Shown in pieces: positions 1-64,000 of a DNA stretch of 64,000 bases. The DNA is from Psammoneis japonica (Eukaryota): contig QPGO01000023.1 of NCBI GenBank assembly GCA_008632985.1, forward strand, positions 403,266 through 467,265. The letters run 5' to 3'. Numbering within the stretch: position 1 is the stretch's first letter; the number at the start of each line of letters is the position of its first letter. The notes beneath the pieces were generated by a model. The model had not been told where the DNA came from, searched no databases, and saw only the letters and a program-made list of their open reading frames with translations. Both the position numbers and the translations under genes were made by a program.

Positions 1-3000
1 TTTCTGGCGGACTCTGAGCACCCTGACATCATTCATCAATGCTGTGGAGATGGACATGCTGCCATCAAGATGATCTTCTTTGACATCTCACCAATTTGGA
101 TGAAGCATCCACATGAGTTGATCAAGAGCCATCTGCACCAAAACAATCTTGCAATTCTTGGATGCTGTGCTCTGTTCAGAGACCACCTCCAGCTGCGGGC
201 AATTGTCTCCAACGTTGATGCTTCTCTTGATGACCCTGGAGAGCCAGACATTTTTCTTGGCAATGCTTGCTGTGGAGAATGCCTTCACCGTAAAACAGTG
301 GACGCCTGGGAAGACAAGAACAAGCAACACAAGTTCGCCCAGAAGAAGATTGTTGAAACCATCAGTGTGATTCTCAAGGAACAGGATGGCCCTGCTCTTT
401 GTGTCAAGGATCCTCCCAAATGCCCTCCACATTGTCTCCATGACTCGCCCAACCCTTCTCTTGCAGCTCCTGTTCGAGGTCTTGACTTGCTTCCTGCAGA
501 TGAGGTGTCTGCTCCACCTCCAGTTGTTGAGGAGACTCCAATCATGGAACCTGACCCTCCTGCTGCAGAAGAACCCATGGATGCCATGGAGCATTTTGTG
601 AATGAACTTGGTGCTGTGGACATTCCTGCTGGATGATGAAGCACATGCACCACATGGCATCTGCAAGGCGCGCATCTACAGGACCAAGTTTTCACCTGCC
701 ATTGCACAGACTCATCCGTGTGTGTTCCATGAGTGCCCTGCATTGAATGATGCTGAGCACCTGCACACCCACCCCACTTGGTTCTCCCAGTTTCTTCAAC
801 GTGATCGGCATGCTCGCAATGCACTCAAGTCTGACATGGCCAAGAAGGATTTTTCCTGGGGCCATTGTTGCGTTCGGGCAAACAATGCCACCCATCTTCA
901 TCCCATCCAAAACCTCATGCAAGTGGGGCAACTGTGAAAGAGGGTCCATCCGACTTGTTGCCTTCCACTGAAGCACCTCTTTCCCGTGTGTCATTGGGTG
1001 GGGAATTGCACAAGAATCCCAAAGTTTGTGACCTCTTTGAACAAGAATTCCAGCATGACATCTGTCCTTCTGGCGCTGGTGCATCCAGCCAATGTGGGCC
1101 TGTTGAACACTCACACTCAACTGTTGAGAACGCGATTCGTGCGATTTTAATTGGCGCCAACCTCCCGATTCGATTCTGGCCCTGTGCCTTTTGCCATTGC
1201 CTCCGCATCAAGAGTGCCACTCCTGTGAAAGATCAAGATGCAGCACCCATCACTCTTGCCACCAGAAAGGTCAAAGATTTTAGCACCCTGAAGACTTTTG
1301 GATGTCCAGCATGGTCCAAATGTTCCACTGCTTGTTCTGCTCCTTTCCGGACCAACTCGAAGAAAGGTGTCTTCCTTGGCCACCTCCCGAACACCCTGAA
1401 GAATGTCATGTGGAGGGATCCTGAGACTGACAAAGTCAAGACGGCCAAACATGTGCGCTGCAATGAAGGTGTGAATGATCTATTTTTTGGATCAACTTCC
1501 TCCAAATGCCATCCATTTGCAATGTGTGGAGAGAATGGTCAGCCTTTTCCGGCTGAAACACAGGACACAACTGTGCCCATGTTTGCTTCTTCATCAAATC
1601 CTTTTGCTGCGACCATTGCATGCACCATGAAACATCCTCACAGGGATCCTGCCTGTGGTTTTGGATTTTCCCAGTGCACCCTCATGGGCCGTGTCTGTGT
1701 TTCGGAAATCAAGCAGTGCAGTCCTGCGGCTTCCTTGTTCTCCTCTCTCCATGCTGCTTGCAACAAGATCATGGGTGCATGTGTCATCTTCATCAATGAG
1801 CGTGAAGTTTTTGCTCCACAGGATGCTGAGGAAGCCTCATCTCAGGTCTTCCATGTGACAAAATTCTGACCTTCGAGATTGCCTTTGCACCGGAACGACA
1901 TCTGGACTCCCGCACTCTCAACAAAGCATTTGAGGAAGCAGAGCTGTTTGAACCTGATTCCATGGAGGATGACTCTCACGCACCTGAACTTGCCTTGGAG
2001 GATGTCCAATCTGTTGCAGCTGTTCTCTGTCCCGAAGATGATTTCTCTGACAAGGCTGTCCCAATGGATTTTTTTCCATGCTCACCTCAGTGCGATCAGC
2101 TCCCGCTCTCTCGCTGCCCTTGACCATCTCACCCGTGCTGAGCTTCGTAAACTTGACAAATGGCCTGAATGGGAAGAAGGCGAGCAGCATCAATTGGACC
2201 AATTTTGTGCACTGGGCATGTGTGGTCCCCCTCAACCACGTCCTCCTGGAGCAAATGTCATGCATCCGCATTGGGATTGCATGGTGAAGCCTGATGGACA
2301 ACGCCATTCTCGGCAATGTGGAGATGGATCCAAGTCATCTGTGCCGGCTTTGCACAAGTTGACTTCCACCTGTTCATCATGTGTGGAACGCTCCATTGAA
2401 AAGATGTTCTTTGCTCTCAGCGCAGCTGTGTGTGTCCTGTTGTGTCTTTGGTGGCAATGCTTGGGATGCCTGTGCTCATTCTCCTGGTCCTTTGCAACTG
2501 GTTTTCATTGCCATCAATGATGCATGTGCTGCCTGGTGCAAAAAATGCTTTGGCAAGAAAGTGCCCTGCCACTGTGTTCTCCCACTCAAGCATGCTCTTC
2601 AAGGCCACCCTGAAGCTGGCGTCCTCTGGGAAAAGCATGTCAACTCGATCCTTGTGGGTGCAAAACTTCTTTTCCGCAATGCTGCCCATGACAAGTGCAT
2701 CTGCTCTGGTGAATGTGATGGTGTCAAGGTCCTGTTGCTCCATCAAGTCGATGATTTTGCACTTTCTTGTCCCTCCGAGAAGATTGCGAAAGAGATCTGT
2801 GACCATGTTGGCAAGGCTCTTCAGATGGAAAATGAAGACACTCCTCCATTCAAGCATTTGGGTTTGGTTTGCTGAATTCAATGGCATTGATGTCATCCAG
2901 AATGACGACTCAATTGCCATCAATGTTGCCAGTCACCTCGATCATGTTTTCAAGACTCATGGATGGGATGCTCCCACTGCGAATGAATCTGATTCTGACT

Positions 3001-4101
3001 TCAAAGCTGCTCCTGTGCTGGTTGATTGCATTTCTGATCTGTGTGCTGCTGAAGGCCCTGCTGAAGGTGCTCCCGAGCATGATGCTCTGTCGGAGTCCCA
3101 AGGTTTCTCCTGCCGTTCGGTTCTGGGTGAATTGGTCTTTGCTTGCTCGTGTTGATGCTTGGACATTGGTCGTCCTGTTGTCACTTTGTCCAAGTTCTCC
3201 AAGGCTCTGGCTGAACTTCATTGTGACTCTCTCAAGCACATGGCAAAGCATTTGTGGCACAGCAAGCATTGGGGTTTGACGCACAAGAAGGCCAAGTGTG
3301 ATCCTGGTCTTCCTCCTTGTGATTTTGAAGGGCTTGAGGATGATCCCTCTCTTCCTGACTTTCCTTGTGCCAATGATCTGTTTCAGCTTCTTGGTTTTAT
3401 TGATGCAGCTCATGCCAACGAACTTTGGCGTCGACGGTCTGCTGTTGGCTGCGCACATGTCCTTGCTGGTGCTGCGATTGGTTGCTGTTGTTGCGCCCAA
3501 ACGATTGCAGCTGCCAGTTCCATGGAAGCTGAATTTCTTGTGGCTGTTGCGGGTGCCAAGCAGACTCTCTACCTTCACATGGTTCTTGAAGAATTGGGAC
3601 TTCCCCAGCATGATCCTGCTCCCTTGCACATTGACAGCTCCTCTGCCATCCAGATGATCAACAACAAGGTGCCTGCGGAGCGATCCCGCCACGTTGATGT
3701 TCAACATTTTGCAATCCAAGACTGGCATGATGCAGGCAAGATTGTCACTCGACATGTCCCGGGTGTCATCAACCCCGCCGATGCACTGACCAAGGCTGTG
3801 GATTGGACACTTCGTTCCTGCCATGCCTGCCGTTTGATGGGGGACACTGACGTTGATTGTTGTCATGTTTGGCTTGTGGATCAAGTCTTGGGTGTGTTTC
3901 TTGTTTGTTTTTTGCCATTCTGGTCCTCTCTTTTTCACTCGGATTGTCTCTTTTCTTTCTTGATGAGCTTTTGCATTGCTCATCAGGGGAGGGTGACAGA
4001 CATCCGAGATGGGGAGCACACTCCCTTGTGTCGGACAGACTGGCATGGACAGCATTGGGAGATCCGATGATCTCTCCTTTGCTCACTTTCTTTCTCATCT
4101 A
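1..4101 (+). mobile_element. Degenerate Ty1/Copia LTR retrotransposon (diatom CoDi-like), 5' part outside window; integrase-RT-RNaseH order
   Basis: Integrase-like GGELHKNP...GPVEHSHSTVENAIRAILIGANLPIRFWPCAF (~990-1210); RT-like ALQGHPEAGVLWEKH and LLHQVDDFAL (~2590-2770); RNaseH-like SSMEAEF, HVDVQHFAIQDW, INPADALTK (~3510-3800); frameshifts and stops; polypurine tract aggggaggg (3985-3993) followed by TG (3994), the likely 3' LTR start. Confidence 0.92.
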
Positions 4102-5640
4102 CTACGAATTGCTGAACAATTGCGCGATACACGTGCCCGAACGGTGATTGTTGCTTCGGGCACGAAATTCGAGCTTCGCGCACGTAGAGACCGTAGAATA
4201 TGTACCAACATTCGAGAATGTCCGATTTGTGTAGATCACGTAGCACCGTACCACAGGGCGATCCAGGAAACTTCGAAGTTTCGAAAAATATACTAGAAGA
4301 TTCCTAATCCCTATCGATATATCTCTACGTGGACCTCGTGTAGGATAGACAAAAGCTTCGAACATTCTGAGGTTTCTGTCTCTATTGCCCTTAATATTGC
4401 CCCAGTGAAAGTTCGTAGTGTTCGAAGTTGTTCGAAGTGTTCGAATACTTCGAACACTTCGAAGTACTTCGAACATTTTCGAAGCTTTATATAATATCAA
4501 GTATCATATATAATTAATACTTTCTGATTTGTCAGCTTCCTCCGTATAACGTGGTAATGCTTCTACGAGTACGATATTTTTTTGTGTGCGAACGCGACCC
4601 TGACAGCGCTTCCGACGCGACAACATGTTGACACTACTGTGAGATGCCCCTGACTTGTCAATCAACCCACGAGGGATTGTGTGCCGTGTTGTAATGACAT
4701 CGTTCGACCCGTTTTTGCATTGACATCGTTGATGGAAGCTCGTCATTTTTCGTTTGTACGGGGTTTCACGTGGTTTGTCTCGACGACAATGGTGGAGCGG
4801 TTCTACAGACGACAAAATTGGATTTGAGGTGCTTCATCGTGGCATTTTTGACCCAAGTGGTCGACAGAGGACCCATGTATTGCTTGTAAGCGTCGAAATG
4901 AGTGGTTTTGGGCAATCGGCTTCCGAATTCCTGCCACCATGGTCGTGAAGCACGGCGTTGCACCATGACGTGATCAAAATCAAGCCAATTACAGTATTGA
5001 TAATGTACAGTGCCGAATAAATAATACGGGATAGATGATGTCATTTTTTTTCGTCCTTTATGTGATTGGGCAATACTGTTCCATTGTACGGTAGGTACGT
5101 ACTATTCGAAACGTCGAACTTGTTCGAACAAGTTCGAACTTTGTTCGAATAAGTTCGAAGTGGGCAAGAGGGCAATAATAATTGTTCGAACAATTAGACA
5201 CTTAGAATCAAAAGGATAAGAGGGCAATATGTTACCGACAAATATTCGAACACTTCGAACAATATTCGAAATTTTCGAACAACTTCGAACACAACAAATA
5301 TTTGTTCGAACTTTTATCTATTGCCCCTTGTTTAACTTGTACCAACCAGGTACGAGCTCTGCGCGTAGAATAATGTACAGAAATGTCATGGAATATAGAA
5401 TCTTTCGAAGCCTTTGAAGTTTCCTGGATCGCCCAGAGGTCATTTCCTGAAATTCCCGCGACGACTCATACGATTTTTCAATACCATATACTATGTAGAA
5501 TGGACTCTGCGCGAACGATGATTGTTGCTTCGGGCAACGATATTCGAGCTTCGGGCACGTGTATCGCGCAATTGTTCAGCAATTCGTAGTAGAGTGCACG
5601 ATTGTCATCTGTCCTAGAAATCCATTAGATTGTCCCTACA
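3994..5640 (+). repeat. Putative 3' LTR of the Copia element, split by the TIR insertion (3994-4101 plus ~5592-5640)
   Basis: TG immediately after the PPT; candidate ...ccctaCA end at ~5640; the 5' LTR is outside the window so the end cannot be confirmed. Confidence 0.45.
4102..5589. mobile_element. Non-autonomous TIR DNA transposon (~1.49 kb) with TA target-site duplication (Tc1/mariner-type)
   Basis: Perfect ~40 bp terminal inverted repeats ctacgaattgctgaacaattgcgcgatacacgtgcccgaa (from 4102) and its reverse complement ending at 5589; TA at 4100-4101 and 5590-5591; subterminal inverted repeat gggcgatccaggaaacttc/gaagtttcctggatcgccc; no recognisable transposase. Confidence 0.85.
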
Positions 5641-7758: not shown

Positions 7759-10700
7759 TTATCCCCTATCGGTATTACGGCGAGAGCGCGTCCTTGCCGT
7801 CGCCACGGGCTTTGATTTGGTCGCAAACCTACCGGAGCGTGAACGGCGTTTCAGGTTCGTGATTGAACTAGATTCCGAGGAATCAGGAGAAGAGACGCTT
7901 CCGAGAGACACCTCCTTTGGAGATTTCATTCTAGTAGTCCTCGAGCTAGTTGCACCCCGACCAGCGTTGTTGCCTCGACCAAGACGTGACTTCGTCGCCT
8001 TCGCCTCGGATTGCTCCCACTCATCCTCCATATCTCCGTCATCATCGGGGAAATCAAATTCATCTATTTCTCCTTCCTCGCTTGCCTCTCGCTGAGATGG
8101 CGCCTTCCGTTTCCTCTTGGAGGTGCGCTTCGTTGCCTGCCGGGTTGTCTTTTTTGCTAACGTATCGGATCTTCCTACTTTGATTTGCACGGGCTTCGAA
8201 GATCTCCTTTTCTTTGCGCTACTTCCTTTCGTGGAACTCCCCGGAGACTTACGCTTCTCATTGAGTGAATTACTCGAATTTGGAGTAGTCGACAAGTTCT
8301 CCTTGCCTTCCGCGGCAAAAGCCTTTCTTGAACGCCGACCGCGGCTGTTCCTTGGCTTCTTTTCATCTACAGCAGAATCGAGCGACTGCGGTGTAGGATG
8401 AGGATCAGGCGACCGCAGGATAGAAGGAGGGGTGGTTCCAAGAGTGAGTCTCTCGCTGTTACTGTCTTTGCTCGTACCAGGACTCGGGGATGCAGAATTT
8501 GGCGACTGAATCGGCGACAAATTTTCAAAGGCATCACGCGACTGTGGGGTATACGTTCGAACCGGGCTGGAGGCTTCGTCCTCATCATCGGACTGGCCAG
8601 CATCATCTTCCGCTCCGAATGAGTTGCTACCGAATTGGACTTCTGGGGAGAAATGGACGCGCCCTCTTCGCTGTGATGCCGAAAGAGCGCTTGTAGAACT
8701 GTCCACAGATTCTCTTGCCCTGGTACGTCTAGCTCTACTGATGGCCGAGCCCTCCCCGTCGCTGGCGTCACCGTGGTCCCTTCTGCGCAGAGATTTTCTC
8801 ATTCGTTGGCTACTGACACGTGGACTGGTTACCTGTGCTGTTTCATCAAAGCTTGCAGTCTGTGACTCAGGCTGACTTTGCTGGGAAGCCGTTCTCGTCG
8901 AAGAATGCGAGGGTGAACCCGGAAGAGAAACGTCACTCGACTGAGAAAGACTAGCGGTGCAAGTCCGACGTTTGAAGAGATTCGAGGGAACTTGCACAGC
9001 TCCAGGATAAGGAGTCAGATTCACATCCTTCTTCACAAACGAAAGAAGAACCTCTCGTGCTGTTCCACAGATCACCTTTAGCTTTGCAGCTGCTAGAGAT
9101 TCCTTGTCGTTGATATGGGACTCTTCCGAAGGTACACTCAAGGGCGTACCTCCGTTATCATCCTCCTGCGACAAACCGGCGTTTTCAAGGTCTTCCGATA
9201 CTACCGTTGGGCAATAATTCTTGCCAATAATTTCTGTCATTCGTAACAGGAAAGATATGTTGTCGGCCCCATCACCCAGACTCTGGACCAGAGGTTCAAA
9301 CAGCCACCTGAGGCGCTTCTTCAACATCCTGTGACGTCCTTGCTCGTCGGAAGTCATCTCGACTTCCTCATTTTCCGCGTTACTCGCTTGCGTCATACCA
9401 GTTCCAGATGACCCACCAGCAGAGGGCGTTTCACGGCGAAAGGATAAGAGATGAAGAGCAAAAGGAACGGAGAATTCTGGCATCAGCATCATCTTGACAT
9501 GGCTTTCGAACTTCATCTCCGCTTCTCTGCCACGAGCGCGACACTGAGCAAGATAGGTATCGCACGTCTTGCGGAGATAAGATATGAACTGCAAACCTGC
9601 ATCTTTCGTGGATACTGCACGTTTGCCAACGTGGGCTGCATTTCCATTTGCGCTGCTATGTCCACCATGCTCGCCGTCAACACAAAGACAGAGAAGAGCA
9701 AGGAAGCGTAAACTTGGAGCATGGTTGCCTCGCAGCATCTGCGATAACTGGTCCATTACGGCGGACCTTACAGCTCGTTCCTCGTCGACGAGCGACCGAC
9801 TGAATACATGCCACATACCTGGAGTCAAGTATTTCTTTTCAAGTTTCAAACGGGCATCACACAGAAGAAGTGTATGGACCGCCGCACACTGTCGCAATGC
9901 AGCTCGATCTTGACGGCTCCTGCAGGATCTGCGATCGCGGTTAGAAGGTGGTAGGCCGTTATCCCTCAAAATTTGCAAAAGAATGGAAAACACACTTTGA
10001 ATATGCTCTTGTTGTGGGGCTTTGGCTGTCCCCCGGCGGGCCATGATGGCCTTGGAAACAGTAGATCGGATATGTGAAACAAGGAACTCGATTGCAGCAC
10101 ACGCCGTTCTGCACGCGACAGACAGAGATGCGTCTTCGAGAACATCGATGCTATCACCCGGGGTCGAATGCTGTGTTACGCCTTCATTGCTGCGTCCGTT
10201 GGAGTTTCGACGCCTTGATTTCGTTGAAGCAGGTGTCGCCACATCCTCCTCTTCGTCAGTTCTGTCTGCGTCCTCGTCGCTTTCGATATCTTCAGATGAA
10301 TCGCTTCGCCCGAGCAGTATTGTTTCAAGGGCAAATCGGATCGCCTTCTGGCCTCTTGCATTGCTCTCGTTGAACATCCCTGGGGCGCTCTCTGCTAAAG
10401 CTGCTAGAGCTGTGAGGATGCTAACCAATTTGACATTTCCGGCCCCACCTCCACCGCTTGTCAAGGATAACCTTGTTGGCGATGTAAGCGACTTCAACAA
10501 GGAACTAAAGGCCTCGATTTCCCTTTCTCCATCATGAGAAGACGACCCCGTTGGCCGTTGAAGCGCGGCCATGGTAAAAACGGCAAACTTTGCCTGTTGA
10601 GGCGTTCCGTCGCGAGTGCAAAGGTTTGCCAGTTTCGTTTGAATGTCAATATCAATCAGCCCTGCCGTAATTCCTTTGTCCTGCGTAACGTACATTGGGA

Positions 10701-13700
10701 AGCCAAACAATAAGCTAGTATTGAAATGTAGAGAAACAGATTCATAACTCATGCCCTTCTCACCTTGTCCCCCGCAAAACGGGCTGCCCTAGCGGGAGCC
10801 GCGGCGGCGAGAATCTCGCTAAGAACAGTGACCACCCCGCTATCTTCGATGTCCTTTTTCGTACTACCAGAGTGGGGTGACCTGCATTCACCAAACAGCT
10901 CCACCAACGTACCAAACGCTTCTTTCGTACCACACAGCGTCGGAAAAGCGTTGACTGCCATTTTGACACAAACCAAGAAAGACATGCAGCCACGGAGGTC
11001 GCCTTCGTGTAAGCACTCTTGGGCCAGTAGAATGGAGTGGTGAATATTTTCAACATTGATAAAGTTACCCATGGCACATCGACGTGCAAGCCTTTTCACC
11101 CACTCAACCGTAGCTGTTCCGAGAGGCTTTGTGCGTTTTGGTAATTCATCAAGGGCCCGAGCACGCGCCGATGCCGAGTGCGTTGGATTTGCAATTGTCG
11201 CCAAGATACGAAAAATATGCGTGTCGCGAGCTGAGTGAAGCTTCTGTAAGACTGTTTGTAAATCTGTTGCCGAAGAGCCCGACCCACTGATGGGAGCCGT
11301 GAGTTTTGCCACTGCTTCAAGGCATTCCATTGCCTCCGCTTCCGCAGTGAGACCCTCTTCCGTATCTGTGACGAGAAAAGATGGATTAAAGTGAGACGTT
11401 AAAATGGGGGAAGCTGGCAAGAGAGGACTCTCCAAAACTCACCAGGCTCGCATTGTCGAATTTTGCTTCGAGCGTCTATATATTGTGCGACGGCGCGCTG
11501 TAGACTGGAGCGTTTACAAGCAATGCCCCATCCACTTGCAGGCATTGGATGTGGTGTTTTTATATCCTCTCCGTCGTCTCTGAGAGAGCTCACAATGAGC
11601 GCAAGACCCACCGCTCTGCTAGTCGCTGTAAGACTTCCCTTCTTGCTTTTCTCATCTTTTGAGGTGGAACCCAAAAGTACGTCGTCAACAATCTGAACGA
11701 CGCGACTTCTCATATCCGGATCCGTCGCATCAGTGTAGCTGGCACTTTCAAACACAAGTTTAGGTATCCATGCAAACCTCGTTTCAAGATCTGACGGGTC
11801 ATCTTCATCATCGGCGAGCGATCGACGCTTCTTGCTTTTGCGATTAGAGGGAGTATGTGCGTCGTCGATACATCCCGCTCCATGAAGAACATCCAGAATG
11901 ATGTGAATATCACAATCATCCCCGCCGCTTTGTACTTGGCGGAGCTTCTCTTCGATGTAGTGGCGAAAGTATATCTGCGCTAGGCCAGTGATTGCATCGC
12001 GATGTTCGGTCTTATTCTTGGAGCAAACACGGTTCCCGACCGCACGCAACAGTCGAGATGACACCCATGCGTGAGAGTCCGTGTCACGATCGCTTCGGCC
12101 CTTACTCTTGAACGCCAAATCACAAACCGTGTGAATTGCCTCCAGGCGGACTTCTAGGGTAGGATCGTGTTCAATAATGTCGATAATAGTATCCGATGCA
12201 TCCGTAACGAGCGTTTTTTCTTGACCCTTGTTTGAAAGAACGGCAACAAGATACTTGACCATGGCGTGACGGATCTTGGGTTCCTTGTCGTTGCTGCGGC
12301 CAAGCCACTTGCGAAAGCAAGGATTGAATTCAATAGCAATCTTGGAGGAAGGTGCATAAAACAGGCGACCGAGAAGCTTCGTGACACGCAGCCGCAGGTC
12401 AACGTCGGGCGATTCCAGCGAACTAGTGACGGTCCCAATCACAGTCGTCAGAATCGGTGGTGAAATCCTGTGTAGCTCGTATACAATGGCCCAAACATCC
12501 GCTCCCGCCTGCTTCTCTGGAACAGGAAACGCCGAGGAAGCGGCAGCAGGTGCAGCTTCTGCAGACGAAATCACCGTCTGGGTAATTACATTGTTATCCC
12601 CGTTCAAAAGGCCATTCAATAAACCCGCAATGGGAGTTGAGATTCGATCAACTGTTCGGCGAATCACGGCAGAAGCTGCGTGGTATGAAGGGTTAGTTTG
12701 CTGAATCTGCATGGGAGGCATTTTTTCTGGCTTCTCTTTCTTCTTGGCAGCCTTTGCGGCCGCCTCTACAGCGGCAGGGTTGGTTACGTAGACAACCGGG
12801 CCCTCACCAATACAGGTGAGAATCTCGTCAAGTACGCAAATCGGCACCGTCCCGTCAAATTCATCAATACAGGCACTGACGGCTGAAACAGCGTGGCTCT
12901 TTACTTCCGGAGGGTGGTCAATATGCACGCATCGTAGAATCGTGCGCACGAGATCTGCAAGCGTCTCGAGTGCCTCTTCACGACTGGGAGTATCGTCTCC
13001 ATCCTCCACGTCGGAGTCAAGACTGCGAGTCAGTTCTACCAGTACGACACCGATCCTAACTTCCGAGAGCTGCTCCAAAAGACGAAAGTAGTGATTGAAA
13101 TTGGCCTGACTTGGAGAGGTGCAGTGTGCCAGATTGGCCAATTGGCGAATCATTTGTGAAAAGACCTTTAGGATTTCAGATTCATACCATGGTGGGTCCG
13201 GGGCGTACTGAATAAGCGAGAGAAATAAGATCTCAATCGTAAGTTGCTGGAAAAGCCATAATGATATTGTGAACGCATAGTCGAAACATACCAGATAGAA
13301 GATTTCCATACATGCAAGAACTGTATGCAGCCGAACTTCTTTGTCTCTGTGTGATAAGAAGCGATCTCCCACCAGAGCCGATGCCAGACTAGCAAGCCCT
13401 GGATAATCTTGACTGTTATTCGGCTCAATGTCATCGTCTCCCAGAGCATCAACGACTGTTCTCAATCTGCGAACCAAATCATTCTGTAAAAGCAAGTACA
13501 ATCAAGAAGGTGAGACGACGATATGCCGAGAACGCAAAAAAGAGCTATCGTGAGCACGAGTCATGTATTCAACGTGGGTTTTGTATGAGCGGCAATCATC
13601 ATCATGACGATGCAGACCCCAGTTGCAATCCCGTCCACGTTCGGTCAGAAATGTTTCTTCTGTCATACTCTGGCCAGTTCAATCCATTTATAAAGCTGAT

Positions 13701-20700: not shown

Positions 20701-20834
20701 CACTGCCACAGCAGCTTTGCAGCCACCTGCACAGGAGCACCAATCACAAAACATGCTGTGCTCACAACAAAATGGCAGCCAGCACCAAAAAAGATTTGGC
20801 AAAAAGCAGCTCTCTTGTCTTGTTGAGCTGCCTC

Positions 20835-20835
<1 letters not shown>

Positions 20836-20872: not shown

Positions 20873-20874
<2 letters not shown>

Positions 20875-42175: not shown

Positions 42176-42180
42176 GGATG

Positions 42181-48640: not shown

Positions 48641-49111
48641 CACGTGTAAGTTAGAAGTTCGGCACATCTGGACGACTCTTCGGCGAGGGTCTGTCTACAT
48701 AAAGTACAAGAGAGTCTTTAAAGTACCGGTAGAACAGGACTACGCCAAAAGACTTTCCATTAGGCTCTAAAAGTTGATATACATTTCCTGTGTACAAGTC
48801 GACGAAGGTAAGGAAGTAGCAGTTACCGTCTTCAGGGTTGATGAAAAGGTGTTCATCCTGCAGTCGGGTACGAGCACATCCGAGACACCACTGCACAAGA
48901 TTTCATCACTAATTTTTGAATGTCGTCAGATTCCTTAGATAATTATTAAAGATGTAATCTAAAATCTATGACACCGTCTTGTCGTTTTGAAAGTACGACG
49001 TAGCATGCAGATTCGGTGCCGCCAGTTCAAGGGTCTCTGCCTAGCTAATGTAACTATGTCCGCTCGCTTGAATTTCATGCAGGTCGATGCAAAAGAGACT
49101 TGACAAATGCT

Positions 49112-52900: not shown

Positions 52901-55900
52901 ATCCAAGGTTCAGTTTCACCGTGATTCCACTTATGATCCCTCTCCGAACTGGATCGCGCTTGCCTGTGTGTGGCAAAAGTCGAAGGGCAGACCTCATTTT
53001 TTTGCAGAGCTGATGGCTGTGAACCATGTTGTTGCAAAGGAACTTGGGTGCAAGAGCTTGCTGCACTTTCTTTCCGCAAAAGGATGGAGTTGTTCCAGTC
53101 AAGGCGCCAAACATCCTCATGTGTTGGAGTGTCGCCGTGCTCCCAAAGCAGAGGATGCGAAAGTCGTCGGCGACAAGGCAAAATCAGACGCGTTCCAGGT
53201 CCAGGTGGGACCTCGCACTGCTGAACTGTGACATCGACAGTTTTTTGAATCACGTCGCATGTCGCACACGTAGATTTCTACGTGATTTTTTCAATGTTTT
53301 GTGTCATTTTACGGTGCACTTGTTGAGCGATCCGTCCAACAACTTTTGACATTTTTTGTTGCAGCGCGATTCTATGATGTCTTGAGAATCGCGTGGGGCA
53401 GGCGCATTTGCAAAAACATCAAGTGGTGAGAGGCACAATTGCACCACAAACTTGGCCGTTCATTTGATGTTGAAGACAAATGTGTCCATCAACTGAATTC
53501 TCACACTGCAGAGCTTGCACGTAGAATTCTGCGGGCCCAATGTCACACGGAGTCCCACCTGGGGCTGGAACGCGTCATCAACAGACATTGCAACCAACAT
53601 GATGGCAAAGATTTCCATGTTGCACAAGCTTCTCCATGATCCCGGATTGTGCGACCCAAAGGGAGAGCCACTTGTCAAGCACACCAAGCTGAGAAGTTTT
53701 GAAGGGAAGGTTTTGCGTTACGTGCAATGCCTTCACATTGGTTTTTTGATTCTTTGTGACAAGATTCCACCATGCACACCTGAAAGGAATGGTGATTGCG
53801 ATCATTGGCTGCACTCCCTGTTCGGTGAATGTGATGAGACATCAACTTGCATCAACTTTTTGGAGAATTTCCTGGCTCTTGGTCACTGTGAGATGACCAA
53901 AGAGGAGTGCCCCATGTCCTTCCCTGAATTCAAAAGTCGTTGTTCCGCCAACACAAACATTCTTGGGAAAAGCCTGTGCGACTGGCGATGCTCGATGTCG
54001 AGCGAGAACAAATGTGTGCAACACATGTTGATGAGACTCTTTTAAGATGTGTGAAAATTGATTGTGTGGTTTCTGCCGCTGATGATTCCGGCAAAAGCAA
54101 GGCTGCAAGGGATCGTTTTGAGGCCATGTGGAAAGCCAGGCTTTGTGACTTTGCCACTCAGTGCAAGAAGAAAGAAATCGGCAATGCAATTCCATCCGTT
54201 ACGAAAAATGCTCGGAAACGAAAAAATCCAAATGGCATGAATCCATCACATTGTTTGATTGATTGTTTGTGCTCCTCTTCTTGTCTCTAATTCTTCCATT
54301 CTTCTTGCCACCTCTTTAGCCGCCTCCCTTTGCTCCTCAAGCCCCAGTCTCAAAAACCCCAAAGATGGTGAACCTTCTGATGTTTCTCAGAACGAATCGC
54401 TGATTCTCCAACATGTGCCGACTCTCAAGGAACAATTTGAACATTCCCGAACAAAGTGGCCGACCCTCGGCACGACTCATCAGTCGCCTCCTCCTCTGCC
54501 AGACAATTTCACAAAAGAAGAGCTTGTGAAAGTGTTTCCTGAACCATCTCCGTTTGCGATTCCGGGTGAGGTGAAGTCACAACATTCTCACCTTGTCATC
54601 TTTGAGGAAACCCCCATTTCCGGTTCCTTCAAGGGGAACTGTGTCAAGCACCAGTCATTCCACAGCATCTCCGATTTCTGCTTGGTGAATCACCTCCGCA
54701 AGTTTGTGCATGGATTTGAAAACGGCACAGCTCCCAATGATCCGATGCAAGAATCGATGGCTGCGATTGCTTGCCCAACCCAGCCAACCTCTCATTTTTC
54801 TGACATGGTCACTTGTTTGTGACACACGGACAAGATGTGTCAGAAATGCTTTTTTGGATTGCCAGTCAGTGTGTCGTCGACACTCCATGCAGTGTTGGAA
54901 CATGGCGAGCAGAACGAAAAAAGGGATGGACCAGAATGCAAGTTGCGCTGTCGGATCTGTTTTGGTTGTTGTGGCCAGAATTACGAAGTTGTGGACGGTG
55001 AGTTAGCTGAAGTGGGACCTGCTCACAAGCCTGGTGCTGTCTTTGGCAGGGACAAGTGGGAGAAGCTTCCAAAGGATGTGCAGGCAATGACAGCCTCAAT
55101 CTTGGATGCCACGCAACTCTGCGAGGACGAAATTAATCTTGTTGCATTGAAAGAAATGCGTTCCTTCCATGACCTGCACCGTGACAGTCTTTTCGCGGCT
55201 GAGCTCTGTAAGATGGTTGGAGCCAAGCACATTGGAAGGGAAGGCGTGGAAATTCAAGTTAAGTGCATCTTGTCGTCCGGCAAAAAATCCGTCAATTCGA
55301 AAACTGAGCTGCACATTGACAAAGAGGATTGTGACATGGATGGGTGCACCAAGACTGGTGCTCTTTGCTCATCACTGCGAGACGCTGTTGGTTGCTCTTG
55401 GTCGTTGAAGGTCATCACTGCATCCAAAGGCAATGCTGGAAACTGTGTCAGTTCGGCACATGGGCATGCCGAGTTCCGATCGCGTGTGCATGGTCATTTC
55501 GCAAAACTTGATCTGTCACATGCTGCAGCAATGATGAGACACCGTGGCCCTTGTCGTCCTCCGTCGGGCAAGCCAACCCACAGAAACATCAAAATTTTTT
55601 TCCTTGACCCTCACTCTGCGTGGGTGGAAGAGGAAATTGGCAAGCCAAATCTTCTGTCCAACACAATTTAGTGTCCCGTCATTGTCATGCCGAGGAAACG
55701 TCCTCCGTTTGCCATCGTGAAGGACCCCAATTTCTCGTGCGGTTGTTCGGCAATCATCGACAACCTCGATGAGGTTGGTGCACACGATTGCTTTCGTTGC
55801 GCCGTTGTGGCTGGGTGTCAATCCGGATTCTCCCGTTTTTGCCGCTTGTTGTGCAACACAGATGCTGTGAAGCGTCCTTTTGTGGCTGGCGATCGTGCCC

Positions 55901-58405
55901 TTCATTGCTTCAGAGAAGCCATGAGGCTGTTCGGCAGCATTGCGGGGGATCGCAATGACCAACGCATGCAGAGCCTGGGACTCAATTTTGAGGAGGTTCA
56001 TGTGGCAGAGTGCGGGACGAAACTCAACGGTTTGATGGATTTGCTTGTTGGCAGACTGGTTGTCATCATCGACTGGATCAATGACAATGTTGGCAAGCCA
56101 ATGTTCAACCACAAGGCGATCGAGGATGTGTTTCAAACCGTGGTCCAAACATGGGATCACACAGGTGCTGATTGTGGAGAGTTCAGATGCATGAACTCTG
56201 TGCAGACATTGATGCTGTGTGGCACAGGGATCCATCCTCACCCTGACCTTCACAATCTTGTCTGTCCGGCAGCCAAGTTGGGAGCGGCGAAGCAAATGGA
56301 GGAAATGAAGGTCCCGGTGGAGGAGCGCGATTTACTCTTGGAACAGATGGAGGGTGATTTTGATTTGGAAGACTGTGGAAAGAATGGTCCAGAGTCTTTG
56401 CTGTGTGACCTGAGTGCAGCTCGTGAAAAGATGGGAATCTGCGATGTCTTTTGTTGCGGACAGCATCTGTTGCTCTTGTTCTCTGATGGGCAATCAATGA
56501 CCAAGCGGTTTGGAAGGTGTGAATGGGAGCCAGCCCCATTCGTGTCGATTGATGAAGTTCGAGCCGAACTGGAATGGCAAAGAGAGGTCACTTTTTCGTG
56601 GCAATCACATTTGTTTTTTGTCTGATTGTGCCAACATTGTCACATTGATTTCTCGTTCTAACAGGAAGAAGGCCGCCGGTGATTTGTTGTCATTCACAAT
56701 GAACAAAAGTGATGATTGCAAGGAGGAGTCAATTGACAAGAAAACAAGCAAACTTCCAACTGCTTGCATGGGTGAAGAGGACAAAAGCGAAGAGCCTGTT
56801 GACGATGAGCACAACCAAGTTGCACATTGCTCCAAGGGTGAAGAGGACCACAGCGACTTGGGAGATTGTTTTGCAAGTGATGAAACTGACGGGGAAACAC
56901 ACAATGTGCCATGGTTGGGGATGACCCGTCCACTCAATGCAAGGCAACTGTCTTCTCAAGAATTGTGCTCTGAGAAGGGGGTGGCCTCAGTGTTGTCCGA
57001 CCAACACAGGCGAGATGAGGCCCGCGCAATGGCATTTGAGGAATCTAACAAAACAACCACAAATGTCATTCTGACAGTTTCTCTCCAAGACGGACATCCT
57101 GATCTGCACTTAAATTGCAATGTGAAAGCAAGAGATTTCGTCAAGAGAGTCAAGCAGCAGTTTGAGAAACTTGTTGATTTCGACAATCATGGGTTCGACC
57201 AAATCATGTTGGACTGCTGCTGGATCCCAGATGGAGAGTGGCACGACAGTCGTTTTGGGACGACTCAATTTTTCCAAAATCCAATTGATCTTTGGGCCTT
57301 GCTCTCCAAAAACAAAGAAGGGGGGGACACAGTGATTCCCTTCACTCTTGCAACCTTCTTCCAGGTTGTCAAACAATGGAAGAAATTGTCAGCTGTGTTC
57401 GACACATGCACAATGGACAAGGATGCTGCAAAGAGCTGTGCGAGCACATTCTTTGCAAGCAACCTTACAACCCAAGAACAACAAGAACAGTGGTTGGGAA
57501 AGCCTTCCAATCAGGAAGAAGCTCATCTTGGAGTTTCCCCAAAGAAGACATCAGAATGAAAGCAACGGAAGGTGCTTGCACCGCACTGCTTCACGTGCAC
57601 CGCAATGACTTTGCCAATTCTGAAAGGATCAAATTCATCATGTTTGCGAGAAAGAGTTGGGCAATCACTGTGAGTGAATGACAGATTGACACGTGCACCC
57701 CATTTTAGAAACAAATCTGACCAACACTTCCTTCTGTCCTGTGTGGCCCAAACAAGTGGGGCCTTTTCTTGTGCTTCCACTGCTCCTGGACATTCTTCAC
57801 AAACCAAAACATTGTCCCCAATTGCTTTGACAGGGACAACCCGCAACTTGGGTGAGTGCTGAGTCTTCTCAGGCATTGAAAGCAAGTTGTTTTGTTTGTG
57901 ATCAAGCTGCCAGCGACTGACCAAGTCTGCATGCTGATGCTGTTGCCTCACAGTTCTCTGGTCAATGTTGACAGGGCCTTCATCAAGACTCATGCTCGTC
58001 ATCCTTGTCTTGTGGATGAGAAGGGAAAAGAAGAACAACACGCAAAAAATGGCGGGAAAATGGCAAACATTACATTGTCTTCCAGATTTGGATGACTCTC
58101 ATGGGTGTGACGTGTCTGCATTTTGATTTTTTATCTGGCATTTGCAGCGAACATTGTTCTTTTTTATTTGCTGTCAAAATGAAGGATGTTGTCTCCGTTG
58201 GAACGCAATGACAGCCACATCAAAAAGCAAGTTGGGCTGTTCATTGTTACACACAAACATGTTTTCAAATTTCAATGTTGCCGACAACAATTTGTGCAAT
58301 GTCACAGAGAAAAATGGAGTGGCTGGCTGTCTCAACACGACCCAGACGACGGTTGCACTGTCAAACAGCAACGCTGCTCTCATTGTTGCCGTGCAAAGAT
58401 CAAGA

Positions 58406-59724
58406 TGTCGTCTCCAGCACCACCGGCAAAGAAGAGAAAGAAAAATGAGACTGTCAAGCCAATGAGCCCGAGACTTCAGGCAGTGTTGAAGAGAACAGGT
58501 GCGCAGGCAGTGCATGGTGCATTGAAATCAGAAGCAGAGAAGGTGGCTGGAAATGATCTCTTTCCACAAGTGAAGTTTCTCAGTCCATCAGAGCTGGCAA
58601 GCAATGGGAGCGTCTCAATGTTTGTCAAGAAACAGATTGCTGGTGGCAACATGGACACTTCAAATTGGTCAGGAACTTGGGAGGAATGGGCAAAAAAGGC
58701 AGTAAAAAGGCAAATTGACAATCGCAGAAACACGGTGTGTTCGGCCATTGGGGCGGAGGCAATGGCCCGCAAGTCAAGTGACCAATGTGTGTGACTCGAG
58801 AGTTGCGTGCATCTCACAAGAAGATGACGGTGATGCTTTGTCTGTGTGGGCGTTGTCACTGAGGAAGAGGGAAAGGAAAAAGAAAAGAAACTCAAGGCGG
58901 CAGTCAGGAGGAAAAAGCAAAACAGGAAAAAGTCAAGCCGTGACAAGAATGAAGAGAATGACATCCCGTTTGTGCCGACATGGGATCCGTTCAGCCTGGA
59001 CACTGTCACCGGCGGCAAACGAAGGAACAAGCAGGCACGCAAGTGGTTCTGTGATCACATCCCACCTCAAACCAAGCAAAAGCAGGCATGGAGTCGCACC
59101 GTCAAAACTGGGAATGCACAGGTCTCACAGTTGTTTGTGGCAGGTGACGAAGCTTTGGCGCCATCAGCCATGGAGAATTGTTGGCAGGTGTGGGCACACA
59201 GGAACAAGGAGGAGGCGGTGGAAGAATTGGGTGAGGAAATGGAGCCCGAAGAAACAAGGCCTGCCCCTCAGCACACGAAGCCAAAGAAACAACGAGAGTC
59301 TTGGGGAGATGACGGAATCATTCGGTTCAACGATTCATGCAAAGAGGTGACAAAAGACAGAGACTCCAAGGAGGGCAAGGAGTTTGAAAAGTGGCACGAG
59401 GAGATCAAGAAAAGCGAGTGCAAGAAGTCCGGAGAAGCAAAAAAGAAGAAGAAGACAGCGCCGACCGGTGATGCGGAGAAGGTGAAGGCAATGAACAGCC
59501 CAATGGTGGAGAGCAGCAGGGGTGACAACAGCAATGACGATGAGCAGGAGGAAGGAGCAAAAGGAAAAACAAATGACGGAGGAGATGAATCCGATGAAGA
59601 CAAGTCCAATGAAGACAAGTCCGATGATGATTGTCAGCTCAGTTTGAGAGAGTTGCAGCAAGAAAATGTGCACACAGTTGACACAGCACTCGGTCATTGC
59701 ACTGCAGATGTGACAAGGAATTGA
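58406..59724 (+). pseudogene. Transposon-associated accessory ORF remnant (DEA..hhEN.W ... W..DG..RFN type)
   Basis: LFPQVKFL...W, AGDEALAPSAMENCWQVW, SWGDDGIIRFNDSCKEV; resembles from memory a repeat-associated diatom protein type; not verified. Confidence 0.45.
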
Positions 59725-60099
59725 CTCAACTGATGAAATGTTTTTCTCGTTTAAAATGATGTTTGCGAAATTAACAAACCAAGGTTTGTGTGGCAATGCA
59801 ATCACGCATTGGCACATGGCAACAAGGTGGAGGCAGAAATGGTGATGTGGACATGGTGAAAAACAGCACACACAATTCTCAACAAGTTGTTGCAACATTG
59901 GTGCGCCAAACTTGCAACCAGAGGTTGGCCTGTCATCATGTGACAACAACATTTTGCAACATTTTAATGAATTGTCATCATGCAAATCTACACATTTTTA
60001 ACATTTCGTGCACTCTGATGGCCAAGAGATGTGTTGTCTTGTCTTGTGCTGCCATGACTCAGGAGCAACAAGCCTGCACCTTGCTGGGTGGCCCTTCAC

Positions 60100-63000
60100 A
60101 CACTGCAAATGCCTGAGTTTAACTTCCTTGTTGAGGTTTGTGGTTGAACACCACCAAAAACAAAGGACACTGCTTTGCAAATGGACAAGTGGTTTGGCAA
60201 AATGTGAGGATGTGCCAATGACAAAAGCAATGGTCAGTGCCACACTGATGACAAAAAGACTTTTGTCTGCTGTTCAGTGGCAATTTGAGTCTCAAGTTCT
60301 CCAGACAAATCTGCCAATGAACCCAAGCTGTCTTCCAAGGACTTTGCCAATGCACTTGGTCTAAATCCAAAAACCTTTTGTCAACAAATGAAGCAAAAAA
60401 ATTGCCAGAGTGGCCTTGATTGAGAACAAAAAAGACAATGTCATGTGGTCTTCAGTGCAACCCCACCCATTGGCATGCTCACAAAGTTTCCCCTGAGATC
60501 CTGCCAGAATGGTGTGCAATGCAGCAAGGCAATGGACATGCATGCATTGCAGGAGATCATGGTGAAATCTGCGCAACTGTTTTTGATCAAACATCATGCA
60601 AAATGCAACGTTGTCCTGTGGCAAAAAAACAGTGTTTGCACCATGAAAATTTCTGTTTGAGGATCAAAAATGGTGGCACACTCACTCAGCTCACAAACCA
60701 AAAGAATCGCAGTTGGATTTTGAACACAGAGGAATGTTCACCTGACAAGGCTGCAACCTGTCAGAGTGCCAATGGTGTGAGCAACAAGCCAAGGAGCTCC
60801 CTGCAAACCAGCGACATTGGACAACATGTGTGCCAGTGAAAAAGAGCAAGAGATGCAGATCTCAGCAGAGATCTGCTCACCCATCTAGAGTTCAGCATCT
60901 GTTGTCTTCAAACAGTCTGATGACCATGCACAGCAGTTGGTCTGCTGACATGTCCGCGGAGCCTTTGTGCATTGGTTGCGGTTGGAAAATCATCCTGATT
61001 CAGTGCAGTTGCCCAAAACTCAAGAGATGTGATTCTGTTGAAGAGGAAGAAGATGGAAGCAAAAAAATGAGCAAACAAGTGGTTGCACAACATGTCCATG
61101 CATCAGCTGCACAACAACATCATGTGGAAGCCTGTGGGTTCTGGAGGTTTTGAATTTGCCCATGACGCCAATGGCAAGACCCTCATTGGTGACACCATTT
61201 TTGCTTTTTGATTTGATTGGGCATTGGACAGATTCAAAAAAGGCTTTTAAATGAGATGCAGGTGAAGCAAAAATGGCTGAAGGCTGCAAGTGATGACCCT
61301 GAAATCTCTGACAACCATGACAGTGAAATCATGAATTTGTGGAAGATCAAACTGGCCATTGTCAACAAGAAGCGCTTGGCTCCAGCTCCAATCACCTTCA
61401 TCCCAAAGCATGAGATGCCACTGCATTCACCATTTGCAGCAACACAAATGGTCAGGATCACTCTCATTTGAAATGTGTGTTGGCTGAGTGCAACAATTGC
61501 CCACTCCATCTAACTCCATTGCTGGATGAACAGAACAAAAGTCCCAAAGGACCCCAAATTGTTTCAACGGCATTTGACTGTGATTGGTTTTTCCAAGCAT
61601 GGCATGTTCATGGAAGCATGTCCTGTTTGTGAGGCAGATCCAGGTGGAAATGAGGGTGCACAGCTCAAAAGAAGAATTTTGTTGACAAGGTTCCACAAAC
61701 CTGTTGGGGTGTTTGTGAAAGAGCAACGTGCTCCCAGTTTGAAGAAGCTGCGTTGCCATCTTGGCCAAGTGTCTGTTCTTGGGGGGAATGCATGGAAATG
61801 TGTCACAAACAGCATTTTCACATCTGCTGATTGCTCTGAGCATCTTCCATCTGAGATCAACAACCAAGGTCAAGGCAGCCATTGTGGCAACAGCCAATCA
61901 ATGTGTGCTGAGGGTGGAGTTTGCAATGTGATGATTGACAATGAGTCTAAAAAAATGCACCATGCGCATCTCTTTGATTTGTCCAAGCAAGATGCCACTG
62001 CATCCCAGATGGTTGTGCCAAACAGCACTGGCATGCTTCAGCAATGTGCTTGTTGTCTGTGTTTGCCCACAAATGCAAAGTTGTCTTTGAATGGCTGGAG
62101 CACCTGGACAGGGCAAATGCAAGGTTGATGAAATTAGAGCCTGCACCAAATTTGCCACATGTCAAGAAATGCAGTCTGCAACTGTTGCAGGAGCAAGCAG
62201 CAACAAGGACAAAAAATCAGAGCTGATGCTTTGGTCATGCAGTGGAGCACAGTGTCTTCTTGCAGGAGTGTTTGAAAATTCTTTTGGGGAAGAGAGTGCT
62301 TTTGGGGAAGTTGTTGGTGACAGAGGAAACATGCTTTGAGGGAATCCCACAAAAAGTTGAAAGAAGTCAAAGGGTGCATCAACTGCAAGACCCAAAGGAT
62401 GTTTCTGGTTCTTGCGCCAAAGTCAAGTTGCAAGGATTGGCGCAACTGTGTCAGTGCTGTTGTGGCATTGGTGCCATGTGCCATTTTTGATTAGAGCCCT
62501 TTTTCCCTGTTGGCTGGGTTGCCATGTGACACATTCCTTGTGCTTGTGATGGCTGCCCAGCTCAGCTCAGACAACCTTGGGCAAACAATGAGCACAACCA
62601 AGCAGCCTTGACATGCATCTGGCAACCAATCTCACAAACCCTGGCCCATCTTTGAGGGACTGAATGATTGGCAAGTTTGTCAGGTTGTTCAAACAACTGA
62701 GAGTGTTGCCAACAAGGCACAGTCAGTTCAAAAACTGGGATGGATTTTTGATTGAGGAAAAGGCAGAACAAGTTGTTGCAAACAGCTGTGCCGCCCTGTC
62801 TGGTGAATCTGAAAAGGGCTTTTTTCTGCTGCAACTGGATGAACTGCTGCCCAAAGCACAAGAAAATGCTGTGTGGAATGAGTTTGATCCACCTGCAAAT
62901 TTCAAGGCTGGTCAGTGGGTTTGCATGGGAACACATCCAACCAAGCCGTGCTCCAAGGGCCAGAGGATGGTGCTGCACTCCTGGAGATGCTGGGGAATGT

Positions 63001-63324
63001 CAAACAAGAGTTTTGCTCAAGCAAATTGCAGTTGCAAACATTTTGCTGAATGAACCACCAGGCTCTCTGCAAATTCCAAGGATGTGCAAAAGGAATGAGG
63101 CTTCACTTTTCAGCCCCCATCATTTGACTGAGGATGAGCATGAAGCCATTCTTGGTGCAATGCACCAGCATGAGTCACTGGATCATTTTGAGGATTGCTT
63201 GGATGATGATGATGAAGAGCACAGCAAGCATGAAGAGCCAGAGGAAGAGAGTGACAACAAAGCAGAGGAGGACAACAGTGGTGCGTGGGTGTGGGGGTGT
63301 TGGGGGGGGGAACAACAAAGCTGA
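60100..63324 (+). pseudogene. Degenerate DDE-type DNA transposase-like gene
   Basis: DCSEHLPSEINNQ...HCGNSQSMCAEG, HAHLFDLSKQDA, GAPGQGKCKVD (GHGK..D-like), HIPCACDGCPAQLRQPW; superfamily uncertain. Confidence 0.5.
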
Positions 63325-64000
63325 TGAGGAGGAACAACACGATGACTGGAAAATGAACAAGCACCATGATTGTCACTTTGCATCACCTGACCACCTGATC
63401 AGATGCACCACCCATGACACAAATGTGTGCTTCCAAAGTCACAGCTCACAAGCGTTCTGCTTGCCGACCCTCCGTGCTGTTTTGCCACATTTGGAATTTC
63501 AAACTGGCACACAGCGGCCAATTGTTTTGTTTGTCAGGGATTTGCAACACATTTCACCTCATGTTTGTCATTTCCAAGACACCAGTTCAGCCACCTGACA
63601 TCACTTGCTGGCATGAAAAATGGTGGTTGGAACCAAAGATCCACTCACAGCACAAGGCATTGCAGTGGTTGTTCACTGGATGGCACAAAATCATGCAGTC
63701 ATCATTGCAGGCTGTCACATCAATTTCACCACCTGCTTCCAAGGAAAAGGTTTGCTCCAAACTGCCTCAAAACTTCATTTTGGAGTTCCTTGGTGGGAAC
63801 TTCCCCCTTCAAACAGCTGCTCAGCATGCTCTTTGCAAGCAACACCTGGCTGTTGTCAGTTTCAACTCATTTGGCAGATGTTTCAAGGTGAGATGTGTGT
63901 TCATTCATTTCCAAGTTGCCGACAAAAGACAAAACACTGGCCAGGGACAAAAACACACAAGTGTCTTTGTTTCCTCTGCAAGAGGCAGCTTTGTGGGCAG

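Follow-up and report, generated by a model that had tools for sequence, protein, structure and literature searches.

In a 64 kb window of the diatom Psammoneis japonica genome (contig QPGO01000023.1, positions 403,266–467,265 of the forward strand), to which all block, edge and density figures given here are limited, five blocks are nearly free of the dinucleotide TA. A DNA-level process has turned nearly every TpA in these blocks into TpG or CpA, with one transition per site and on either strand. The signature joins a very recently described kind of hypermutation, here in another major lineage, at saturation, and reaching a long terminal repeat (LTR) retrotransposon and dead host genes.

Blocks were called with a two-state hidden Markov model (HMM) on TA positions, and dinucleotide observed/expected ratios (O/E) were also taken per kb. 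TA O/E per kb is 0.00–0.10 within the five stretches and 0.34–1.16 in the rest of the window. Summed, the blocks comprise 29,924 bases with 99 TA (3.3 per kb, O/E by block 0.03–0.06), where approximately 1150 would be expected at the density of the intervening genes; the 34,076 bases outside contain 1307 TA (38.4 per kb). TG and CA show an O/E of 1.56–1.84 in the blocks. The four segments between blocks display a TA O/E of 0.57–0.74 and a CG O/E of about 1.0. A first-pass annotation, made from the letters of the sequence, had described five nearly TA-free blocks, on the order of ten TA in the first 4 kb, an excess of TG/CA, and normal TA in the interleaved host genes. The HMM limits agree with that outline to 0.1–0.3 kb, the count for the first 4 kb is 8, and both the TG/CA excess and the lack of a comparable depletion in genic DNA are confirmed by the ratios above.

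The edges of the TA-poor blocks are step-like. With the eight edges in the window pooled, TA O/E on the outer side is 0.73 at 0–50 bp and 0.86 at 50–100 bp, and over the 100 bp next to the edge on the inner side it is 0.0. The closest outside TA lies 1–3 bp from every one of the eight edges, and the flanking genes are unaltered up to there. TA loss is restricted to discrete domains, with normal genes between them.

The direction of change can be read from sequences whose ancestral state is available. Blocks 3 and 4 each contain a mutated copy of a segment that is also present in normal DNA of the window (pairs 2 and 1, respectively; coordinates in Table 1). Of the 33 TA in the normal copy of pair 1, none is kept: 16 became CA, 11 became TG and 6 have another outcome. 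The 37 CG of the same copy gave 19 TG, 10 CA and 1 CC, with 7 kept. In pair 2, 4 of 7 TA became CA and 2 TG, with 1 kept, and the 11 CG are represented by 6 kept, 3 TG and 2 CA. Identity between the copies of pair 1 is 78% in four letters and rises to 94–96% in purine/pyrimidine coding, thus the differences are nearly all transitions; pair 2 shows 88% identity in purine/pyrimidine coding. Transitions outside pyrimidine-purine (YpR) steps amount to about 5–18% in pair 1, and there are 23 transversions in approximately 600 aligned bases.

Two decayed coding sequences show the same direction. Block 4 carries a dead copy of the eIF5B gene. Over the 545 columns with agreement among four or more of five diatom orthologues, the pseudogene is identical in 311. 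All 7 conserved Tyr are lost, to Cys (4, TGY), His (2, CAC) and Arg (1, CGC). Conserved Arg is kept in 5 of 27 columns, with replacements that include 6 Gln, 4 His, 2 Cys and 1 Trp. The window opens inside a Ty1/copia LTR retrotransposon, and the 3′ part of this element makes up block 1. With a column counted as conserved when ten or more homologues were aligned and at least 70% of them agreed, 1 of 18 Tyr is kept, the others being 8 Cys, 6 His, 1 Arg, 1 Ser and 1 Phe; columns of other residues are largely intact (Trp 9/9, Gln 7/7, Gly 31/34, Leu 31/35). The block 1 polyprotein contains 0.1% Tyr vs 3.4% in homologues, and 6.1% Cys vs 2.2%. Taken together, Tyr has become Cys or His at 20 of 25 conserved columns (12 Cys, 8 His). 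A Cys is the product of A>G in the sense strand and a His that of the same change in the antisense strand; as the two outcomes occur side by side, neither strand is spared.

The dinucleotide mass balance, in blocks minus normal DNA per kb, is −35.0 for TA, −39.5 for CG, +37.1 for CA and +34.9 for TG, with all other dinucleotides within 9.3. The combined loss of TA and CG (74.5 per kb) is close to the combined gain of TG and CA (71.9 per kb). The direction TA to TG/CA on both strands, as proposed in the first-pass annotation, therefore holds for the paralogue pairs and for the Tyr columns of both decayed genes. The annotation had also held that neither fungal repeat-induced point mutation (RIP) nor deamination of 5-methylcytosine explains the loss of TA, and this stands as well: TpA is destroyed, and CpG decay covers the CG half only. 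The composition of the blocks could also be put down to selection against TA or to import from a foreign genome that lacks TA; both were rejected, since the blocks carry copies of sequences from the same genome that differ almost only by transitions. An ultraviolet or generic repair-deficiency signature was likewise rejected; TC, CC, AA and TT are unchanged.

The loss of CG is a second process, and neither this depletion nor its fading near the block edges was mentioned in the first-pass annotation. CG O/E is 0.30–0.47 by block and 0.06–0.84 by kb. Inward from the edges it is 0.72 (0–50 bp), 1.04 (50–100 bp), 0.75 (100–200 bp), 0.44 (200–400 bp) and 0.29 (400–800 bp). Because the TA edges are steps while the CG loss fades over about 400 bp, the two have different footprints. 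The slower, fuzzy-edged change of CpG to TpG/CpA inside the blocks is ordinary methylated-cytosine decay, and by mass balance it supplies about half of the TG/CA excess. It resembles the methylated-CpG decay of transposons in this half of the signal, but such decay cannot alter TpA, and its domain here is the smaller one.

The TA that remain are unevenly distributed with respect to their neighbours (R, purine; Y, pyrimidine). YTAR occurs 49 times in blocks and 208 times in normal DNA (density ratio 0.27), YTAY 30 and 334 times (0.10), RTAR 17 and 335 times (0.06), and RTAY 3 and 426 times (0.01). The TpA process prefers RTAY. As TA is self-complementary, the pattern fits a per-strand preference for a purine before T (R-T-A) or, equally, for a pyrimidine after A (T-A-Y).

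The same signature has been reported in Bigelowiella natans. According to the available text of a preprint (bioRxiv 10.64898/2026.01.13.699255), mutation in two integrated viral regions of mutation-accumulation lines runs about 1000-fold above the rate of the remaining genome, with changes almost only A>G/T>C and all at TpA. The same text describes 324 TpA-poor coding sequences enriched for reverse transcriptase and DDE domains, and its authors propose an ADAT2-like DNA adenine deaminase; diatoms are not mentioned in it. The view of the first-pass annotation that no described system has this signature is thus overtaken by that report of TpA to TpG/CpA hypermutation. As far as the available text goes, the two cases share the substitution type and the confinement to discrete regions, which in B. 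natans are of non-host-like DNA. They differ in that B. natans belongs to Rhizaria and Psammoneis to the stramenopile diatoms, and in that the process was caught in action in B. natans. The depletion of the viral regions is mild (Rho TpA 0.45), whereas the diatom blocks are near saturation (0.03–0.06). The blocks extend the signature to an LTR retrotransposon and to dead host gene copies, and they display the RTAY preference and the separate CpG decay, neither of which is found in the available B. natans account. A literature search, with subscription journals outside its coverage, gave no report of the signature in diatoms or other stramenopiles and returned only the B. natans preprint.

Several observations bear on when and where the mutations arise. 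Copies of the block 2 repeat elsewhere in the genome, as well as its tandem units, differ by CA vs TG and by CA/TG vs CG at the same dinucleotide. Such differences are what arises when every copy resolves an ancestral TA or CG on its own, so mutation came after copying. Swaps, with CA in one copy and TG in the other, are seen at 13 of the 80 CA/TG sites of pair 1, as expected for CA to TA to TG. The conserved Tyr codons at 45430 and 3171 became Arg codons (CGC and CGT), with both bases of the TA changed. These codons, together with the CA/TG swaps, show that YpR steps can change twice. By a rough estimate, not computed by a tool and based on the transition level outside YpR steps in pair 1, a process that had stopped at insertion would leave about 13–25 new TA per kb from the 213 CA + TG per kb, and 3.3 are present. 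As new TA from background C>T at CpA do not accumulate, and swaps occur, the TpA process seems to be ongoing; each new TA would then be converted to TG or returned to CA, which accounts for the swaps. Treated as a steady state, and with small numbers, the TpA rate would be some tens of times the background transition rate.

These observations count against the alternative in which the RNA or cDNA of retroelements and retro-copied genes is hyper-edited in an ADAR- or APOBEC-like manner and then inserted. Step-like edges would be expected from such a history. In the block 1 retrotransposon the TA loss stops 2 bp past the last CA before the host flank, and a dead copy of a housekeeping gene such as eIF5B could be a retro-copy. 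However, the strands are hit about equally, by the Cys and His counts in copia and eIF5B and by the equal O/E of TG and CA. Block 4 includes a non-coding downstream flank of about 1.2 kb with no poly(A) at its end. The failure of new TA to accumulate and the CA/TG swaps need a process that continues in place. Copies of the block 2 repeat differ by independent CA/TG outcomes, and the B. natans mutations, in the available text, arise in chromosomal DNA during culture. Editing before integration is thus highly unlikely. ADAR hyper-editing and APOBEC3 share with the diatom case, if it is deamination, an enzymatic attack on selfish nucleic acids, but their substrates are RNA or a single cDNA strand that has yet to integrate, whereas the diatom process hits both chromosomal strands and seems to continue in place.

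The targets are of mixed origin. In block 1, residues 323–1276 of a 1280-aa polyprotein (P0193) align with 40–51% identity (tblastn), the open reading frame at 3156–4067 matches the C-terminus of polyproteins of 1200–1700 aa (phmmer E-value = 3.7e-63 to P0193), and a SH3_retrovirus Pfam match is found within 835–1866. The 257 bases that follow the pol homology are presumably the 3′ LTR. The right part of block 2 (about 21.0–21.3 kb and 22.0–24.0 kb) is multi-copy in the genome, with a word depth of 340–1130 vs about 60 in the flanks. The bin 24016–24349, which spans the block 2 edge at 24071, has a word depth of about 1190; a multi-copy but unmutated element may abut the mutated block there. 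The copia element and the multi-copy repeat fit foreign DNA, and two blocks are copies of host sequence. All five blocks are non-functional and presumably silenced DNA, the silencing being suggested by the decay of their coding sequences and the loss of CpG.

The first-pass annotation had named repeats as the target. This holds for the Ty1/copia element and for part of block 2; it does not hold for the eIF5B pseudogene of block 4 or the partial gene copy of block 3, nor are the normal paralogues mutated. A direct repeat pair of about 190 bp in normal DNA (39901–40094 and 42642–42827, 87% identical) is unmutated in both copies, and being repeated is therefore insufficient to attract mutation, at least at this length. 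The same facts bear on a RIP-like homology trigger, in which pairing would reveal duplicated DNA and mutation would then cover the full extent of the duplication. Duplicated host sequence and a multi-copy repeat are indeed among the mutated stretches, whose limits are sharp, and diatoms have DNMT4 enzymes related to fungal RID, with function unknown in the available text (PMC9998398). RIP, as described in the accessible part of PMC2621366, makes TpA from CpA and mutates both copies; here TA falls from 38.4 to 3.3 per kb, the partner copies of both pairs retain their TA (33 and 7), the 190-bp pair is untouched, and an intact copy of the essential eIF5B gene must be present elsewhere. A homology trigger of this type is very unlikely. 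Fungal RIP is likewise a transition hypermutation at a particular dinucleotide that inactivates transposons and duplicated genes within fairly sharp boundaries, and it operates ahead of meiosis with a RID/DNMT4 enzyme; the difference is that C>T at CpA creates TpA and strikes both copies, whereas the diatom blocks lose TpA and partner copies are spared.

We favour a process that would act in place on the chromosome and continue there, aimed by a silent chromatin state or by a stretch-specific guide and not by repeat pairing, and of the same kind as the TpA hypermutation of integrated viral DNA in B. natans. The favoured chemistry is conversion of adenine to hypoxanthine at 5′-TA by a recruited TadA/ADAT-type polynucleotide adenosine deaminase, which would be read as G at the next replication. 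Deamination is favoured because it gives pure transitions, as in the blocks. The polynucleotide adenosine deaminases known to us favour U or T ahead of the edited base. TadA and ADAT edit A34, which follows the conserved U33. ADAR favours U before the edited A, by the available text of the B. natans preprint (bioRxiv 10.64898/2026.01.13.699255, Discussion). With all of its parts taken jointly, this reading has about an even chance of being correct.

Several points weigh against it. Polynucleotide deaminases usually require their substrate to be single-stranded, a condition that silent DNA does not obviously favour, and spreading chromatin marks do not usually give step-like edges. For the one natural ADAT2 known to us whose activity on DNA has been measured, the accessible part of its description gives GAA as the preferred context of A and TCG as that of C, rather than TA. 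Blocks 2 and 5, which make up 20 of the 30 kb, are without identity in the Pfam, database, PDB and Atlas searches. The ancestral states are read from paralogue pairs of about 700 and 200 bp, two in number and both short, from copia homologues that are 28–51% identical and from eIF5B of other diatoms. Finally, the public reads of run X1 possibly come from the same sample as the assembly, and the library type of this run is not on record.

A different chemistry would give the same dinucleotide change. A TET/JBP-type dioxygenase could oxidise thymine at TpA in silenced DNA to 5-hydroxymethyluracil (5hmU) or 5-formyluracil as an epigenetic mark, with T>C as a mutational by-product in the way that CpG decay is one of 5-methylcytosine. 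Given that TpA is self-complementary, T>C at T-A-Y yields TA to CA/TG with the RTAY preference. 5-Formyluracil mispairs with G. Such enzymes work on double-stranded DNA and mark domains. The presence of CpG decay in the blocks is in keeping with a parallel of this sort. In dinoflagellates, 5hmU made by a TET/JBP enzyme is concentrated on repeats and acts to silence transposons, and T is replaced preferentially in TA and TC according to earlier work cited in the same study (PMC11572971, available text). Some transversions would be expected from thymine oxidation, but 27 of the 33 TA changes in pair 1 are single transitions, and TC is not depleted (67.2 per kb in blocks vs 69.8 outside). 5hmU pairs with A and is not known to be strongly miscoding. 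Dinoflagellates also carry 5hmU in bulk and are not known to be TA-free, which counts against this chemistry. No diatom thymine dioxygenase came up, although no search aimed at one was made. Thymine oxidation is an unlikely source of the signature. The dinoflagellate mark is similar to the diatom process as a thymine modification aimed at repeats in another stramenopile-alveolate-rhizarian lineage, with a reported preference for TA/TC, and different in being an epigenetic mark for which the available text of PMC11572971 reports no TpA loss.

The origin of run X1 is also what speaks for an artefact of assembly or base calling caused by modified bases in heterochromatin: X1 may be the assembly's own source sample. 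In this run, 0.86 of the sampled words of 17000–25000 are present, and word-based contigs were placed on 16000–26000. A contig on 16000–18687 spans the edge from normal DNA into block 2 with 0 differing letters, and contigs on 18660–20827, 20884–21621 and 21716–22910 show 3, 2 and 5 differences. Word depth is 61–68 over the block 2 contigs vs 58 in the flank. As the depth is not halved and the contigs are unbroken at former TA sites, there is no indication of strand-discordant reads from modified bases. Among the variant rows listed (40 of 47), 31 variant events were tabulated: 4 create TA, of which 2 are in the block (both in its multi-copy part), 1 removes TA, and 5 are adjacent double differences of CA vs TG. 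The public reads thus carry the same TA-poor sequence as the assembly, a check that the first-pass annotation had named, and the same signature is present in proteins and contigs of other assemblies. An artefact is extremely improbable.

Those other assemblies were reached through the copia element. Among the best 150 representatives matching its RNase H region, four contain at most 0.3% Tyr (P0229, P0293, P0300 and P0262; median 3.36%). These are metagenome proteins, and they display Cys or His where ordinary homologues have Tyr. DNA for the Tyr-poor P0255 is found on two metagenome contigs from different collections, L001 (1–2314) and L002 (1–7960), which share an identical copia fragment (100%). 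TA O/E on these contigs is 0.11–0.5, CG 0.05–0.8 and TG/CA 1.3–2.0, with a near-normal segment at 6501–7000 of L002. RTAY forms 3 of 96 residual TA in L002 1001–6000 and 1 of 46 in L001, and the order of flanks is the same as in the blocks. Two control loci that are chance matches (L003 and L004, 42% over 34 aa) show normal TA of 0.8–0.9. A metagenome scan with P0300 found no locus. From these contigs it looks as if at least one other organism shows the process, at a less advanced stage, and the Tyr-free copia fragments in unrelated metagenome assemblies suggest that it is widespread in nature.

We tentatively propose that diatoms, chlorarachniophytes and other marine protists may share a dedicated enzyme system that recognises silenced or foreign chromosomal DNA almost to the base pair and continuously rewrites its TpA, preferably RTAY, to TpG/CpA. 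Such a system would amount to a natural, targeted A-to-G (or T-to-C) DNA editor that serves in genome defence by a mechanism unrelated to those of RIP and APOBEC. Transposons, viruses and dead genes would lose their Tyr codons, their TAA and TAG stops and their TATA-like signals to it. Provided that the process is enzymatic and targeted, Psammoneis would be only the second organism, and the first stramenopile, known to show TpA-specific hypermutation of selfish or dead DNA, here saturated and with edges of unusual sharpness. Genetics could lead to the enzyme and its targeting, as several diatom species can be transformed; diatoms also rank among the major primary producers. A natural converter of A:T to G:C at a defined motif in double-stranded chromosomal DNA would also be of interest for genome editing.

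There is a consequence for annotation as well. With TAA and TAG gone, the blocks contain false long open frames: 187 of the 342 window frames of at least 80 aa fall in blocks, where these two stops are nearly absent. Decayed transposons and pseudogenes escape Pfam, and gene finders and domain scans can be expected to mishandle TA-poor DNA. A Pfam scan of 129 block open reading frames of at least 95 aa gave two matches at E-value ≤ 0.001 (SH3_retrovirus and GTP_EFTU_D4), the others having none or chance-level matches of E-value 0.005–0.05, and one copia open reading frame without a Pfam match was still recognised by a full-database search.

Table 1. Features of the window (positions 1–64,000)
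Feature	Coordinates	Strand	Basis or content
TA-poor block 1	1–4099	+	8 TA, TA O/E 0.032 (HMM)
TA-poor block 2	17841–24071	.	20 TA, TA O/E 0.051 (HMM)
TA-poor block 3	41366–42480	-	3 TA, TA O/E 0.041 (HMM)
TA-poor block 4	44169–48646	-	12 TA, TA O/E 0.039 (HMM)
TA-poor block 5	50000–64000	.	56 TA, TA O/E 0.058; 14 kb, continues past window end
Copia polyprotein homology (integrase, reverse transcriptase, RNase H)	937–3842	+	three frames; tblastn with 15 polyproteins, collinear
Putative 3′ LTR	3843–4099		follows pol homology
Dead eIF5B copy with about 1.2 kb of 3′ flank	44169–48646 (block 4)	-	GTP_EFTU_D4 Pfam match; diatom eIF5B 58–67% identity
eIF5B pseudogene core	45329–46951	-	aa 447–1013 of diatom orthologue, several frames, in-frame stops (tblastn)
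Pair 1, mutated paralogue	44506–45209	-	within block 4 3′ flank; copy of 40119–40730
Pair 1, unmutated paralogue	40119–40730	+	normal segment, stand-in for ancestral state; 33 TA, 37 CG
Pair 2, mutated partial gene copy	42178–42392	-	in block 3; copy of 49296–49497
Pair 2, unmutated paralogue	49296–49497	+	inside normal open frame 49112–49960 (-)
Tandem units of about 161 nt	23160–23495 and 23640–23960		block 2
(AC)18 run	20836–20872		block 2
Long decayed open frame	about 53497–57556	+	block 5

The remaining block sequence gave little in the searches made. The 5′ part of block 4 (46952–48646) had no match. Block 2 yields no Pfam match, and an ESM Atlas search with 20667–21620 scored below 0.9, with only leads resembling leucine-rich repeats. 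For block 5 there was likewise no Pfam match, a full-database search with 56501–57556 was empty, and ESM Atlas gave no usable match to 55672–56622. PDB sequence searches with three block open reading frames returned nothing at E-value ≤ 1. Comparison of the window with itself, in four letters, in purine/pyrimidine coding and by tblastx, showed no LTR pair, no terminal inverted repeat and no family common to the blocks.

The genes between the blocks encode PDS5, a P450, an OTU protease, an HMG-box protein, an NmrA-like reductase, MIOS, WD40 and WW-FYVE proteins and a short-chain dehydrogenase. The best named matches of the NmrA-like protein are from Cylindrotheca, Nitzschia and Bacillariaceae, with 60–67% identity. 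By these matches, and with diatom eIF5B as the relative of the block 4 remnant, the window was assigned to the nuclear genome of a raphid pennate diatom. The PDS5 cohesin-associated gene (7759–13501, minus strand) is found as two long open frames, 7759–10788 and 11399–13501, split presumably by introns or frame changes in 10749–11438. A 1140-aa open frame at 36491–39913 (plus strand), also in normal DNA, has no Pfam family at E-value ≤ 0.001.

A second run, X2, resembles an RNA library although filed as 'DNA?'. Its contigs skip 16284–16368 and 25367–25477, which have GT..AG ends and are likely introns of the P450 and HMG-box genes. The run covers genes on both sides of block 2 and nothing in 18004–25017, and such missing cover is no evidence of silence. 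The intergenic sequence directly to the right of block 2 (24072–24800) is very TA-rich, with a TA O/E of 1.16 for 24001–25000, and contains CTACT/AGTAG-type repeats. To the right of block 1, the intergenic region carries short tandem arrays of a TTCGAA palindrome (4411–4484, 5114–5159 and 5241–5292), in which CG and TA are intact.

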